This document shows positions 45,716-49,113 of a DNA stretch of 64,000 nt, in pieces. Every line of letters starts with the position of its first letter. Positions within the stretch are counted from its first letter, which is position 1. The notes beneath the pieces were generated by a model. It had not been told where the DNA came from. It did not search any database and saw only the letters and a program-made list of their open reading frames with translations. Both the position numbers and the translations under genes were made by a program. Source of the stretch: Candidatus Heimdallarchaeota archaeon (GTDB taxonomy: Archaea > Asgardarchaeota > Heimdallarchaeia > Heimdallarchaeales > Kariarchaeaceae); NCBI GenBank assembly GCA_030149205.1, contig JASBSB010000007.1:422473-486472 (forward strand). The letters run 5' to 3'.

Positions 45716-47386
45716 TTACTCTATTCTCTTACCCTTCTTTTTCAGCTCATTAATTCTTCTTGAGAGTTGATTTGCAACATCCTTTCTATTTTCTATAAAT
45801 CTGAGAATCATTAACTCTTCTATGTCTTCATTCTCTTGAATGGCTCGTTTGGCAAACTGATTCGATTTTGCCTCTAAAAGCTTCTTACTGTTTTTCTTAA
45901 AGTCTATTGCCTTTAAAACCTCGTCACTATTTGCAAGATTGGCGTTAACCTCTATATCTTTAATCTCATCTACATCTACCTTTAACTCTGTAGCCTCAAA
46001 TTGCACCCAAGGAACATTGGATTTCAAAAGTGAAGTAATGTCAACTGCCGAATCACTTGATGCCCTTCTGAGATCAACAAAAGAAAGCCTGTCGAAATTT
46101 TCAATCGCCTTTAAATTAGCCTCCTTGAAATCATTTCTATCAAGGTTTAGTTCTTCAAGGGTTCGAATCTGTGAAAGTGGGCTTAGATCAATGGACACTA
46201 ATCTGTTTCTGGCCAGTTGAAGCCTTGTTAAAACTGTTAGGTTCCTCAAAGGTTTGAGGTCTATTTCAGTCAGGTTATTTCTTGTTAATCTAAGGACACG
46301 TAGCCTCTTTAACCCTTCTAAAGGTGTGAGGTCAATATGTTCAAGAAGGTTATCTCCTAGTCTTAGATTATCAAGGTTCTTTAGGTCTTTCAATGGTGTA
46401 AGATCAATCTGATGCAGATCATTAGATTCAAGGATCAACGAATTCAATTCATAAAGTCCAGATATTGGGTTCAAATCAATCTCGGTCAATCTATTTCTGG
46501 ATAAATCAAGTTTCGTAAGGTGAGTTGAGCATCGTAATCCTTCTAGATCGAAGCTTGTAAGCTTGTTGTGTGAGAGGTTGACTTGAAATAGCTTGTCGGT
46601 TTTGTTAAACCCTCTTGCATCTATGTCTGTGATACCTGCATATCTTGCAACAAAATCAACAGTCTGTTCTGAAATGAAATTTGTAATTTTTATCTTCTTC
46701 AAGTCATTTTCACTTAAATCTATAGATTCAAGACTCTTTGGTGCTGATTTTGGGAGCTTGTAATTTTTCACCCCTCTGTTGTATGAGGCATCAACTTTGG
46801 TTAGGTTCGGATGGTGTTCAAGAAATGTCAAATCAAGAGTTTTTAACCGGGAATAACACTCATCAACATCAAGGTTGTATCTTCCAACACCATCTCCCTC
46901 AGCATCTTGATAATACCTGTAATTGTACCAGTTATAGTAGAAATTAGAGAACCTGCTTCTGTTTCGTGTATTTTCATAACCACCTACCTCACTGACACTT
47001 AGATAAGTCAATCCCTCCATCCTCTTAATTGGTGTAGTGTTGAGCTCAGTCAATGTATTCTGAGAAATGATCAATTGACTCAAGTACGGGAGCTTTTCAA
47101 GTGGTGACAGGTTCAGCCTCTCGGTTCTGTTATTTTCTTTAAAGGTAAACCTTATGAGATTCTCCAGCTCTGCTAACGGATCAAGATCCACCTCTGCTAA
47201 TGAGTTATTTATGAATTTTACCGATCTAATCTCTTTAAAATGTAACAGGTCAGCAAGGTCGATGCTCTTAAAACCTCCAGTGATGTCAATTGATAGGAGT
47301 TCACCAGTTGGAGTAAACTTTGGGTTAAGAATTACCTTGTCTTTATACAGTTTTCTTAAAGCCCTGAACTTGTTGTACTCTGACAA
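45716..47386 (-). CDS. Leucine-rich-repeat (LRR) protein with a C-terminal coiled/charged tail
   Basis: At least 12 consecutive 22-23-aa 'L..L.L..N.L..IDL.PL' repeats (LDLSRNRLTEIDLNPISGLYELNSLILESNDLHQIDLTPLKDLKNLDNLRLGDNLLEHIDLTPLEGLKRLRVLRLTRNNLTEIDLKPLRNLTVLTRLQLARNRLVSIDLSPL...). Confidence 0.8.
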   Translation of the reverse strand: MSEYNKFRALRKLYKDKVILNPKFTPTGELLSIDITGGFKSIDLADLLHFKEIRSVKFINNSLAEVDLDPLAELENLIRFTFKENNRTERLNLSPLEKLPYLSQLIISQNTLTELNTTPIKRMEGLTYLSVSEVGGYENTRNRSRFSNFYYNWYNYRYYQDAEGDGVGRYNLDVDECYSRLKTLDLTFLEHHPNLTKVDASYNRGVKNYKLPKSAPKSLESIDLSENDLKKIKITNFISEQTVDFVARYAGITDIDARGFNKTDKLFQVNLSHNKLTSFDLEGLRCSTHLTKLDLSRNRLTEIDLNPISGLYELNSLILESNDLHQIDLTPLKDLKNLDNLRLGDNLLEHIDLTPLEGLKRLRVLRLTRNNLTEIDLKPLRNLTVLTRLQLARNRLVSIDLSPLSQIRTLEELNLDRNDFKEANLKAIENFDRLSFVDLRRASSDSAVDITSLLKSNVPWVQFEATELKVDVDEIKDIEVNANLANSDEVLKAIDFKKNSKKLLEAKSNQFAKRAIQENEDIEELMILRFIENRKDVANQLSRRINELKKKGKRIE

Positions 47387-47435
47387 TATATACCTATTAA
47401 AATTTAAAGTATTTAGATGTTAGTATCAACGAAAA

Positions 47436-48368
47436 TTACGTGGTAAATGTTATGCCTAATGACCTTACAAGCTCTTTATATCTATTTCGAATTGTGACTT
47501 CTGTAACCGTTGCTGTTTCTGCAATCTCTCTCTGTGTTCTCTGGTCGCCTTCCAATATTCCTGCAAGATAAATCGCTGCTGCTGCTAATCCAACTGGATC
47601 CTTTCCGATTGTTATCCTGTTTCTCTTTGCCTTATCAACAATGTCTCTTGCAGTTTTAACCACTCTTCCACCAAGATTAAGTTCAGCACCGAATCTCACA
47701 ACATACGCTGTAGGATCAGTTAATGGGATTTTTAGACCAAGTTCATTAATCAAAAGTCTGTAACATCTTCCTATATCTTTCTTGCTTGTTCTGGAATGTT
47801 TTGCAAATTCGTCTAATGGTCTGGGGACTCGTCTCTGTCTGGCTGCTGCATAAGTCGCTGCGGCGATCATTGCTTCAATTGATCGACCTCTGATTAATCT
47901 CTGACTTAGAGCTTTTCTGTAAATGACAGAGGCTGTCTCTTTCACACTTTGTGGAAGACCAAGCTGACTTGCAATTCTTTCCAGCTCTCTCATAGCTTGT
48001 GTAAGGTTTCTGTCTGTTGCAGAATTAACACGGGTTCTCGCCTGCCACTTTCTCAGTCTATAAATTTGTGATCTCTGCTGTGGGCTTAATTTTCTCCCAT
48101 ATGCGTCTCGATCCTCAATGCCTATCTGCGTGGACAATCCCTTGTCATGCCGGGTGTATGTGGTTTGAGCACCTACCCTGGCTCTTTTTGCCCTCTCTTC
48201 AGAAGAATATGCACGCCACTCTGGAGAATCATCAACCATACTCTCTTCTATCACAGCACCACAATTTGTACAGGTGATTTCTCCTCGATGATGATCTTGA
48301 ATAATCTCTGTACTTCCACAGTCGGGGCACCGTTCTTCTGTCTCTTTCTTGTTCTCAGTTGCTGCCAT
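47436..48368 (-). CDS. tfb: Transcription initiation factor IIB (TFB)
   Basis: N-terminal zinc ribbon 'CPDCGS...CTNCG', B-reader/linker and two cyclin-fold repeats (KGLSTQIG..., RGRSIEAMIAAATYAAARQ...); 310 aa. Confidence 0.9.
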   Translation of the reverse strand: MAATENKKETEERCPDCGSTEIIQDHHRGEITCTNCGAVIEESMVDDSPEWRAYSSEERAKRARVGAQTTYTRHDKGLSTQIGIEDRDAYGRKLSPQQRSQIYRLRKWQARTRVNSATDRNLTQAMRELERIASQLGLPQSVKETASVIYRKALSQRLIRGRSIEAMIAAATYAAARQRRVPRPLDEFAKHSRTSKKDIGRCYRLLINELGLKIPLTDPTAYVVRFGAELNLGGRVVKTARDIVDKAKRNRITIGKDPVGLAAAAIYLAGILEGDQRTQREIAETATVTEVTIRNRYKELVRSLGITFTT

Positions 48369-48546
48369 AAATTACACCAAAAAATTAATAAGCGTTATCT
48401 TCCCTGCAAACACTTATATATACATTATTTCAGACCACTACTATAAAAACATTTGTATGGCGAGTGAGGAAAAAAAGCCCTTCCCCTTTTTTCTTGTGTC
48501 CTATGACGATGTGATCACAACTGCTTAAATTCTAAATTTAGTAAAA

Positions 48547-49113
48547 TTAGTGTCCTTCTTTGAATTGTAGGTCATAACCTATTTGCTTTAAAATATCTTC
48601 AAAAGCTGAGTTAACTCCTTCACCTGTTAAGGCTGATGTCTGATAAAGCTTTATGTCAGTGATGTCATCACCATATGTTTTTAATATTTGTTCACGTGTC
48701 TGTTCCACATCATCTTGTGAAACCTCCCTGTCACTTTCAAGATCCAACTTGTTACCAATTAGATAGATGGGGATTCCCTTGAGTACGTTTGTACACCATT
48801 CTACCCAACGGGGGATGTTCTCTAGTGATCTTTTTTTAGTTAGATCATAAACCGCTAGCACACCAAGGCCACCTTTTAGGTAAGCTTCCGTTCTAGGAAT
48901 ATTGTATGCTTCACCAGCTAGATCCCAGATGACAGCCTTTCCATATATATTTTCAAGATCAAAGGGTTTTACAGAAAAATCTGAACCAAGGGTTTTGATA
49001 TGACTGGTCTTAAATCCTAACCCAAGATATCTACGTCTTAGTGAGGTCTTTCCCACTCCATCACTACCAATAAGAACAATTTTTACCTGATATTGTTCTT
49101 TGTTGCGAATCAT
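48547..49113 (-). CDS. Ras-superfamily small GTPase (Rab/Ras-like)
   Basis: G1 'GSDGVGKTS', switch-I Thr 'IKTLG', G3 'WDLAGEA', G4 'GNKLD', G5 'TSAL'; 188 aa. The G3 Gln expected in 'DTAGQE' is Glu here. Confidence 0.8.
   Translation of the reverse strand: MIRNKEQYQVKIVLIGSDGVGKTSLRRRYLGLGFKTSHIKTLGSDFSVKPFDLENIYGKAVIWDLAGEAYNIPRTEAYLKGGLGVLAVYDLTKKRSLENIPRWVEWCTNVLKGIPIYLIGNKLDLESDREVSQDDVEQTREQILKTYGDDITDIKLYQTSALTGEGVNSAFEDILKQIGYDLQFKEGH

Follow-up and report, generated by a model that had tools for sequence, protein, structure and literature searches.

A predicted Rab-like GTPase with natural Glu and Asp at the Ras Gln61- and Gly12-equivalent positions, and its gene neighbourhood, in a Heimdallarchaeota genome

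Do three archaeal genes that lie in line on one strand, encoding a leucine-rich repeat (LRR) protein, TFB and a small GTPase, work together, and would a GTPase with Glu in place of its catalytic Gln still hydrolyse GTP? The locus belongs to a 64,000-nucleotide stretch of a Heimdallarchaeota contig (hereafter the window). The answer favoured here, as the probable one, is that these are three functionally independent Heimdall-group genes made co-linear by rearrangement, and that the GTPase is a Rab-like Asp/Glu switch which would still hydrolyse GTP.

The locus and its transcription signals

A preliminary description had placed all three genes on the minus strand, with an aldo/keto reductase gene across a divergent spacer of about 200 bp, and this arrangement was recovered in full. 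The features of the locus are as follows.

45716..47386, minus strand: LRR gene, 556 aa, TTG start, predicted cytoplasmic protein
47387..47435, minus strand: TFB-LRR spacer, 49 bp, with A/T-rich 'ctttaaattttaataggtatata' reaching the TTG start
47436..48368, minus strand: TFB gene, 310 aa, Zn-ribbon and two cyclin/TFIIB repeats
48369..48546, minus strand: GTPase-TFB spacer, with a T7 run and a TATA-like element read from the sequence
48547..49113, minus strand: GTPase gene ('GTPe'), 188 aa, predicted Rab-like small GTPase
48910..48912, minus strand: Glu68 codon GAA, Ras Gln61-equivalent position
49060..49062, minus strand: Asp18 codon GAT, P-loop, Ras Gly12-equivalent position
49114..49310: divergent spacer between the GTPase (minus) and AKR (plus) genes, 197 bp, TATA-like A/T tracts at either side
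49311-50330, plus strand: aldo/keto reductase (AKR) gene
42291..45649, plus strand: rest of the conserved neighbourhood (EEP-fn3, AcnX, AcnX swivel), namely
42291-43940, plus strand: Exo_endo_phos-fn3 (EEP-fn3) surface protein gene
44010-45239, plus strand: AcnX gene
45236-45649, plus strand: AcnX swivel subunit gene

The central gene is identified as an archaeal TFB by NCBIfam NF001658 (447 bits, cut-off 384), together with a PF08271 Zn-ribbon and two stretches of PF00382 (TFIIB repeats), and the protein is 88-95% identical among relatives. The spacer between the GTPase and TFB genes contains a T7 run past the GTPase stop (48476-48470), which by archaeal standards looks like a terminator, and, approximately 46-54 nt upstream of the start codon (ATG) of TFB, a TATA-like 'tatatataa' (48422-48414). 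These features argue against a single three-gene transcript, and the GTPase and TFB genes appear to be separate transcription units. The 49-bp spacer that follows TFB suggests either possible co-transcription of the LRR gene with TFB or a possible leaderless promoter of its own. The region at 49114-49310, previously proposed as the promoter, is a plausible one given the TATA-like A/T-rich elements on both of its sides. Pfam scans of essentially all 55 ORFs of the window detected no Roadblock, longin, TBC or other regulator. According to published work, small GTPase genes of Asgard archaea as a rule do not share an operon with their regulators (PMC10933270).

The GTPase and its two substituted positions

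The 188-aa protein matches Pfam Ras (1.4e-32, 113 bits) well ahead of Roc (7.4e-19, 69 bits) and Arf (6e-9). Its AF2 model (pLDDT 92.8, pTM 0.89) has the canonical G-domain fold, for which the best 50 Foldseek matches are all Rabs, led by Rab8, Rab10, Rab25, Rab11 and Rab1 (E ~1e-17 to Rab8, TM ~0.78-0.85), and the best 60 phmmer matches in the PDB are Rab, Ypt or Sec4 proteins plus the Thorarchaeota Rab. Judged by the Pfam scores and the modelled fold, the GTPase belongs with Rab-like and not with Roc-like proteins. The C-terminus (...GYDLQFKEGH) has no Cys and no CC, CXC or CAAX prenylation motif.

The sequence carries G1 (GSDGVGKT, residues 16-23), the switch I Thr (T41), G3 (WDLAGEA, 63-69), G4 (NKLD, 121-124) and G5 (SAL, 160-162). 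G1, G2, G4 and G5 agree with the Ras superfamily, and G3 departs from DxxGQ by reading DLAGE while keeping DxxG itself. Across 48 homologues K22, T23, T41, D64, G67, N121, K122, D124, S160 and A161 are invariant. That the Glu of WDLAGEA stands at the Ras Gln61 site, as the preliminary description had proposed, is upheld by gap-free alignment to Ras, Rab, Rho, Ran and Arf proteins. Glu68 pairs in HMMER alignments with the last residue of WDTAGQ, the Gln, in Rab11, Rab12 and the Rab of Thorarchaeota (7ezb), and in a 129-sequence MAFFT alignment it occupies the Q61 column of H-Ras, shared with the Gln of Rab1A, Rab11A, RhoA, Ran and Arf1. The Glu therefore does not lie elsewhere, an outcome that had been named as counting against the claim.

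None of the orthologues found (57-63% identity) deviates from Glu68. All five carry WDLAGEA[YF] and GSD[GR]VGKT, and neither switch I nor switch II varies. The Glu68 codon is GAA or GAG in independent assemblies, amid synonymous differences, which rules out a sequencing error or a pseudogene. By this comparison, Glu68 and Asp18 are both under purifying selection within a small, lineage-specific orthologue group. With its other G motifs intact and the Glu fixed, the GTPase is predicted to be a maintained GTP-binding protein and not a decayed one.

Glu at the catalytic Gln position is not rare: of the GTPase domains nearest to this one in a library of 1.8 billion proteins, about a quarter have it, and in that library the Glu-type proteins have many different P-loop residues. 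In the 129-sequence alignment, Asp at the Gly12-equivalent site is found in eight of the ten Glu-type homologues and, among Gln-type sequences, in the human Arf1 reference only. A neighbour-joining tree groups nine of the ten Glu-type sequences in a clade with 23% bootstrap, and a single ancient Glu-type clade is accordingly not claimed; the five orthologues are grouped at 100%. The searchable literature gave no characterised example in which the catalytic position is naturally Glu. The protein is an uncharacterised Q61E/G12D-type variant, occurring naturally, of a kind already known.

Such a protein would probably remain able to bind and hydrolyse GTP, its Glu68 carboxylate serving to position or activate the water that attacks. 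The resulting intrinsic hydrolysis would hardly need a conventional Arg-finger GAP; in Ras, such a GAP would be hindered as well by an Asp at the Gly12 position. An alternative, though an unlikely one, is deficient hydrolysis: the Glu68/Asp18 protein would be an atypical GTPase that stays GTP-bound constitutively, with control by expression or binding in place of a GTP/GDP cycle, as in Rnd and RhoH. Most substitutions at positions 12 and 61 of Ras impair hydrolysis, two carboxylates beside the gamma-phosphate might instead disfavour hydrolysis or GTP binding, and the invariant switches would suit selection mainly for effector binding. However, an Asp at the Gly12 position is tolerated by Arf (Arf1 in the alignment) and by Sar1. 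Published results for Ras Q61E conflict: a reduced rate found by Der et al. in 1986, according to the summary given in PMC6813200, is in keeping with deficiency, whereas the increased intrinsic GTPase activity reported in other studies (PMC10515638; PMC2987813) is in keeping with a GTPase that hydrolyses by means of its Glu.

Gene order in relatives and the LRR protein

The preliminary description had also treated the LRR and GTPase genes as the domain pair of a ROCO protein divided between genes, and had looked to their being conserved neighbours in related genomes. The latter is largely not the case. In the sister lineage B (L001, L003, L012 and L006+L027) the GTPase orthologue is on the other strand from the LRR orthologue and 3.2-5.7 kb away from it, with three to five genes in between (AcnX, the AcnX swivel, TFB and in some genomes a 455-aa gene or McrBC). 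The order there is EEP-fn3 and the GTPase on one strand, the swivel and AcnX on the other, TFB again on the first, then either nothing, the 455-aa gene or McrBC, and finally the LRR gene on the opposite strand. The divergent GTPase/AKR arrangement is likewise not kept in relatives, the GTPase gene instead starting 77-79 bp after the EEP-fn3 gene. In relatives, orthologues of EEP-fn3, AcnX and the swivel (57-70% identity) do occur alongside GTPase, TFB and LRR. The genes on the relatives' flanks (S9 peptidase, asparaginase, a 291-aa protein and a HEAT protein) have homologues dispersed in the window at 1.3, 6.5, 9.5 and 20 kb, a wide residual synteny. The gene contexts of two distant Glu-type GTPases (P0035 and P0058) contain no LRR or TFB gene.

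In lineages C and D a different, Gln-type GTPase paralogue lies near the LRR gene, and in lineage E there is none. This Gln-type family is 66-93% conserved and has a distinct G4 motif (GLKVD); given that motif, and identity to the Glu-type protein of ~30% over the N-terminal 120 residues, the two kinds of neighbour were rejected as diverged orthologues. A requirement that some small GTPase adjoin the LRR gene, with the Gln type replaced by the Glu type, was also rejected: one Gln-type paralogue (P0394) is found beyond the limits of the window, elsewhere on its 633,630-bp contig, and the L016 contig has another (P0392) that does not come within 10 kb of the LRR gene.

These observations suggest that the window holds an old syntenic block of AcnX, AcnX swivel, TFB and LRR genes, with an asparaginase and a small GTPase nearby, in which local rearrangements probably made the GTPase, TFB and LRR genes co-linear. 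From the comparison of gene orders, the position of the GTPase beside LRR and TFB looks like leftover gene order, and the clustering is ordinary. A six-gene block has stayed whole across several rearrangements with changing outer flanks, a pattern that can also fit selection for proximity. Co-linearity in one Asgard genome is weak evidence for function: sister genomes reshuffle the same genes and deeper relatives hold a different GTPase paralogue at this place.

The LRR protein itself matches Pfam LRR_8 (5e-25) and LRR_4 (1e-12). Its AF2 model (pLDDT 89.4) is a solenoid of ~18 repeats spanning residues ~19-465, so that the 12 or more repeats first counted were a conservative number, in which strands recur regularly every 24 residues between 292 and 460. 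The protein also has a conserved insert of non-LRR sequence (142-178, with W153 and R157-Y-Y-Q-D-x-E163), and a C-terminal helical module with a basic tail follows the solenoid (472-555). The best PDB match is the LRR domain of Chlorobium tepidum Roco (CtRoco; phmmer 1.5e-33, Foldseek 1e-16), then internalin A and SHOC2. However, in a family-profile search LRIG1 outranks CtRoco and similarity is driven by the repeat consensus, which suggests that the likeness to CtRoco may reflect LRR subclass. A scan of metagenomes for further LRR loci added only a second copy of L019, and the genome scan yielded three orthologous loci with two distant paralogues.

ROCO proteins are defined by a Roc-COR tandem. 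Neither the GTPase, TFB nor the LRR protein has a COR match in Pfam at E<=0.01, and the C-terminal module of the LRR protein gives no COR signal even at E<=10. The GTPase is G-domain throughout its 188 aa, and it and the LRR protein are encoded by separate genes with TFB between them and no fusion. With COR absent, a GTPase that is Rab-like and an adjacency that is not conserved, the split-ROCO operon was rejected.

A looser association, in which the LRR protein acts in trans on the neighbouring GTPase in a proto-ROCO or SHOC2-MRAS-like manner and the clustering reflects this, seems doubtful. The closest solved relatives of the LRR protein are indeed GTPase-associated (CtRoco, with SHOC2 further down), some small GTPase lies 0.8-5.7 kb from the LRR orthologue in lineages A-D, and in L018 the genes run TFB, GTPase, a 232-aa gene and LRR, co-directional and tightly spaced. 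However, the GTPases concerned are the two paralogues described above, alike over the N-terminal two-thirds only, and the Gln type also occurs away from LRR genes on both contigs named. The Glu-type GTPase never adjoins the LRR gene in lineage B, the association of LRR with AcnX and with TFB is conserved just as well or better, and COR is lacking. No Ras or Roc domain was found in the 120 best LRR homologues, nor any LRR domain in 120 GTPase homologues, and the rank of LRIG1 above CtRoco weighs on the same side. Small GTPases are numerous in Asgard genomes, so chance proximity to an LRR gene is not negligible. The fuller version, a Roco-like LRR protein working in trans with neighbouring Rab-like GTPases as an unfused archaeal forerunner of ROCO and SHOC2-MRAS modules, with the Asp18/Glu68 GTPase as a switch that times itself and can do without an Arg-finger GAP, is slightly more doubtful still; a literature search for Asgard Roco or LRR-GTPase links returned nothing relevant. 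With the three genes read as functionally independent, the LRR protein would be a separate cytoplasmic scaffold whose most persistent neighbour is TFB and not the GTPase.

Significance and likeness to known systems

No residues have been studied more in GTPase enzymology and oncology than Ras positions 12 and 61. An Asp/Glu pair that occurs there naturally, and is conserved, in a Rab-like protein from the archaeal group nearest eukaryotes offers a ready-made test case, bearing both on a carboxylate replacing the catalytic Gln and on how an Asgard GTPase is switched off with no recognisable GAP encoded nearby. That Asp18 and Glu68 might instead bind, next to the gamma-phosphate, a cation (monovalent, or a second Mg2+) that takes the place of the Arg finger, as happens in cation-dependent GTPases, is purely inferential and very improbable: Asp and Glu do occur together in the same eight of ten Glu-type homologues, but the protein lacks the K-loop and P-loop Asn signature of K+-dependent GTPases, and P-loop residues vary in the Glu-type proteins of the wider library. 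A second Mg2+ site near the gamma-phosphate, which would fit such a role, is discussed for the raised activity of Ras Q61E (PMC2987813).

Among known systems, C. tepidum Roco (PDB 6hlu, 5il7, 8r4b) provides the best match of the window LRR protein in both sequence and fold, and a Ras-superfamily GTPase gene lies nearby in the window. However, the window proteins have no COR and no fusion, the GTPase is Rab-like and not Roc-like, the gene linkage is not conserved, and the repeat period is 24 residues as opposed to ~22 in CtRoco, with an alignment gap in every repeat. In the SHOC2-MRAS-PP1C complex a stand-alone solenoid of ~20 LRRs binds a GTP-loaded small GTPase in trans. The window LRR protein is likewise stand-alone, but it has no PP1-like partner, and SHOC2 ranks below CtRoco and internalin in Foldseek.

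With eukaryotic Rab8, Rab11 and Rab1 and the Thorarchaeota Rab (PDB 7ezb) the GTPase shares the fold, the G motifs and 29-36% identity, and RabF-like IGxDF, YDxT and WDxAG elements are present. It differs from them in having Glu for the switch II Gln, Asp for Ser at the Gly12-equivalent site, no C-terminal Cys prenylation motif and a diverged RabF3 region (EAYNIPR). Several atypical small GTPases also lack the catalytic Gln, including Rap1 (Thr61), Rnd and RhoH, the LRRK2 Roc domain (Arg1398) and Sar1 (His79). Like the window GTPase these have a natural substitution at the Gln61 site and keep the nucleotide-binding motifs, but in the window protein the substitute is Glu. The laboratory or oncogenic H-Ras mutants Q61E and G12D carry the same residues at both positions, whereas in the window GTPase the pair is natural, conserved and combined, in an archaeal background that is Rab-like.

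Glu68 and Asp18 of the small GTPase

The LRR, TFB and small GTPase genes all lie on the minus strand, with an aldo/keto reductase (AKR) gene divergent to them, exactly where the preliminary description had placed them.

Genes around TFB in the window
45716–47386, minus strand: LRR protein, 556 aa; open reading frame matching LRR_8, LRR_4 and LRR_9 (Pfam)
47436–48368, minus strand: TFB, 310 aa; NF001658, 447 bits against a cut-off of 384 (NCBIfam)
48547–49113, minus strand: small GTPase, 188 aa; Ras 113 bits, Roc 69, Arf 36 (Pfam)
49311–50330, plus strand: aldo/keto reductase, divergent to the GTPase gene

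The GTPase is a Rab-like member of the Ras superfamily. Its AF2 model (pLDDT 92.8) is Rab-like, and the best Foldseek matches are Rab8, Rab10, Rab25, Rab11 and Rab1. The nucleotide-binding motif set is complete (GSDGVGKT, T41, DLAG, NKLD, SAL), the sole exception being the residue after DxxG, Glu68. That this Glu occupies the position of Ras Q61, as first proposed, is borne out by alignment: it stands opposite the catalytic Gln of Rab11, Rab12 and a Thorarchaeota Rab in gap-free HMMER alignments, and in a 129-sequence MAFFT alignment it shares a column with H-Ras Q61 and with the corresponding Gln of Rab1A, Rab11A, RhoA, Ran and Arf1. The exact protein is recorded on an NCBI contig of 633,630 bp, and WDLAGEA[YF] is shared by all of four further orthologue clusters (57–63% identity). 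Among orthologues, hardly any change is seen in switch I (RRRYLGLGF.TSHIKTLGSDFSVK) or at the beginning of switch II, and the remainder has diverged. The Glu68 codon is GAA or GAG amid synonymous differences across independently assembled genomes, which shows purifying selection on this residue and rules out sequencing error or decay as its source. An Asp at the P-loop position equivalent to Ras Gly12 (Asp18, GSDGVGKT) accompanies the Glu in 8 of 10 Glu-type proteins among the best 120 homologues; among Gln-type sequences it occurs only in the human Arf1 reference.

Gln is kept in 103 of the 120 best word-indexed homologues. In an exhaustive profile search covering 1.84 billion representatives, Glu occupies this column in about one in four of 209 aligned GTPase domains from the best 150 proteins; among them are single-domain proteins reading WDLAGE and many multi-domain ones reading 'WDTAGERFR'. 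Because of this share, Glu at the catalytic-Gln site is a recurrent natural variant, common in sequence space, which tempers the significance of the change. The multi-GTPase-domain WDTAGERFR proteins (among homologues P0242–P0375) have a Rab-like WDTAGQERFR in which the Gln is missing or replaced. A literature search found no paper describing a natural Glu at this position. A neighbour-joining tree groups 9 of the 10 Glu-type matches, with 100% bootstrap for the five orthologues; since the wider group has a bootstrap of only 23%, a single ancient origin of Glu-type GTPases is not established.

Proposed intrinsic hydrolysis

Conservation extends to the residues that bind GTP and Mg and to the switch regions, so the GTPase is taken to be a working switch. 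Glu68 would position or activate the attacking water and, together with Asp18, would give an intrinsic hydrolysis with little need of an Arg-finger GAP. Taken jointly with the genomic part of the analysis, this is the preferred reading, and we hold it to be somewhat probable. Published accounts of the corresponding Ras mutant, Q61E, are mixed. Two papers (PMC10515638, PMC2987813) cite increased intrinsic GTPase activity, which speaks against a hydrolysis-dead, permanently 'on' protein; the reduced rate of Der et al. 1986, as given in a review (PMC6813200), would fit such a protein, which we nevertheless consider rather unlikely. Pfam scans across the 64-kb window for the regulator partner envisaged in the preliminary description turned up neither a Roadblock, longin or TBC domain nor that of any other regulator.

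Gene order across lineages

Between the GTPase and TFB genes lie a T7 run, 3' of the GTPase stop codon, and, ahead of TFB, a TATA-like box; the two genes therefore look like separate transcription units. TFB and LRR, spaced by 49 bp, could be co-transcribed. Elsewhere in the window, a second AKR (4996–6000, minus strand) is a paralogue 35% identical to that at 49311–50330 (plus strand). Two giant open reading frames abut on the plus strand, one of 2208 aa with bacterial TSP3 repeats (23814–30440) and one of 2910 aa (30441–39173) that contains FG-GAP repeats and faintly matches BBS7/BBS2-like beta-propellers; with the 832-aa NosD/right-handed beta-helix protein that follows (39294–41792, plus strand) they form a probable surface-protein cluster. 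A 373-aa WD40 beta-propeller protein (62394–63515, minus strand) lies close to the window end.

Five lineages were set by LRR identity: A, the window; B, P0122-125; C, P0126/127; D, P0128/130; and E, P0129.

Gene order by lineage ('>', plus-strand gene; '<', minus-strand gene; EEP-fn3, Exo_endo_phos-fn3 surface protein; AcnX and swivel, the AcnX pair; GTPase(Glu), the Glu-type GTPase; GTPase(Gln), its Gln-type paralogue)
A: EEP-fn3 > AcnX > swivel > <LRR <TFB <GTPase(Glu), then AKR >
B: EEP-fn3 > GTPase(Glu) > <swivel <AcnX, TFB >, [nothing / 455-aa gene / McrBC], <LRR
C: AcnX > swivel > TFB > GTPase(Gln) > 232-aa > LRR > <asparaginase
D: <HEAT <GTPase(Gln), asparaginase > 225-aa > LRR > <TFB <swivel <AcnX
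E: LRR alone, beside IS66 transposase genes

The LRR proteins of all lineages are full-length orthologues (37–46% identity); TFB is 88–95% and AcnX ~70% identical across relatives. The LRR and GTPase genes, treated as a pair in the preliminary description, did not prove to be conserved neighbours. GTPase(Glu) accompanies LRR in lineages A and B only, and in lineage B it lies 3.2–5.7 kb away on the opposite strand, its direct co-directional neighbour being the EEP-fn3 gene; lineages C and D have the other paralogue there, and lineage E has neither nearby. The clustering of GTPase(Glu), TFB and LRR on one strand belongs to the arrangement of this genome alone. Homologues of other flanking genes in the relatives (S9 peptidase, asparaginase, 291-aa protein, HEAT protein) lie dispersed across 40 kb of the window, a pattern of decaying regional synteny and frequent local rearrangement.

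In the sister lineage (B), GTPase(Glu) lies 77–79 bp downstream of, and co-directional with, a 528–546-aa Exo_endo_phos + fn3 gene (the pair at L001 6341–8555, L003 1284–3555, L006 4389–6665 and L012 8408–10543). The window orthologue of the latter (42291–43940), whose N-terminus resembles a signal peptide and whose C-terminus carries a hydrophobic anchor, is separated from the GTPase by 4.6 kb. The slot between TFB and LRR holds a McrB/McrC restriction pair in one lineage (L003 6520–9288, L004 5109–7877) and a 455-aa unknown gene in L001, and is empty in L012. One LRR orthologue alone, at L016 (7084–8486), has no TFB, AcnX or GTPase gene nearby; it adjoins IS66-family transposase genes, a setting consistent with recent rearrangement. 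Directly upstream of LRR in lineages C and D, and absent from the window and lineage B, is a gene for a 225–232-aa protein (L018 9235–9933, L017 9376–10053, L019 8566–9246, L026 1–603). It consists of three ~70-aa repeats (W.G..GL..A...F....R.P...D...IY.....G.W...GI..WN.FL), and its only family match is a faint one to Pfam HNH_repeat (E 0.004).

The paralogue near LRR in lineages C and D (GTPGSGKT, WD[LY]AGQ, degenerate G4 GLKVD) shares ~30% identity with the window GTPase within the N-terminal 120 residues. Its orthologue P0394, with 70% identity, is on the window's own 633,630-bp contig, outside the window, and a further one (P0392) lies in lineage E, on a 977,089-bp contig but >10 kb from LRR, so proximity of either GTPase to LRR is dispensable. 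The persistence of P0394 also rules out replacement of the Gln-type by the Glu-type GTPase beside LRR. The Gln-type genes (L017 7643–8200, minus; L018 8654–9196, plus; L019 6854–7396, minus) are directly followed by a HEAT-repeat gene in L017 and L019. Their family is unusually conserved (66–93% identity, against 37–45% for the LRR protein), with a P-loop GTP[GR][SA]GKT and a conserved degenerate G4, LVGLK[VI]D, in place of NKxD. Compared with the Gln-to-Glu substitution, this change in the guanine-specificity motif may be the more unusual.

The LRR protein and comparison with ROCO proteins

The AF2 model of the LRR protein (pLDDT 89.4) is one long solenoid (residues ~19–465), after which comes a conserved helical module that carries a basic tail; the protein has no signal peptide. 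The solenoid is interrupted by a strongly conserved non-LRR insert (residues 142–178, RYYQD.E) where pLDDT falls below 50 and where W153, R157, Y158, Y159, D161, E163, G166 and R169 are invariant in the family; this may be a conserved loop on the solenoid, possibly dependent on a partner.

The preliminary description had likened the LRR protein and GTPase to the domain pair of ROCO proteins, here in separate genes. One result points that way: the best PDB match of the LRR protein is the LRR domain of C. tepidum Roco (phmmer 1.5e-33; Foldseek 1e-16), with internalin A next and SHOC2 further down. This match favours an association of LRR with GTPase. However, it says little for functional homology, since LRIG1 comes first in the family-profile search, LRR scores are dominated by repeat consensus, and every aligned repeat is gapped, the Roco period being 22 residues against 24 here. 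Furthermore, Pfam domain searches detected no COR domain, and none of the 120 best LRR homologues is fused to a GTPase. With these absences and the dispensable proximity set against the Roco match, a real LRR–GTPase module is improbable. The window GTPase is not a ROCO protein and, on present evidence, not one part of a split ROCO protein either; the analysis does not support the systems-level link that had been proposed.

Bridging of a cation by the Asp18 and Glu68 carboxylates of the GTPase is very improbable. An Asp12/Glu61-type pair in an Asgard background makes a neat enzymological test case. In comparison with eukaryotic Rab proteins the window GTPase lacks a prenylation motif, and in comparison with the Ras superfamily at large it departs from a defining feature, the catalytic Gln.
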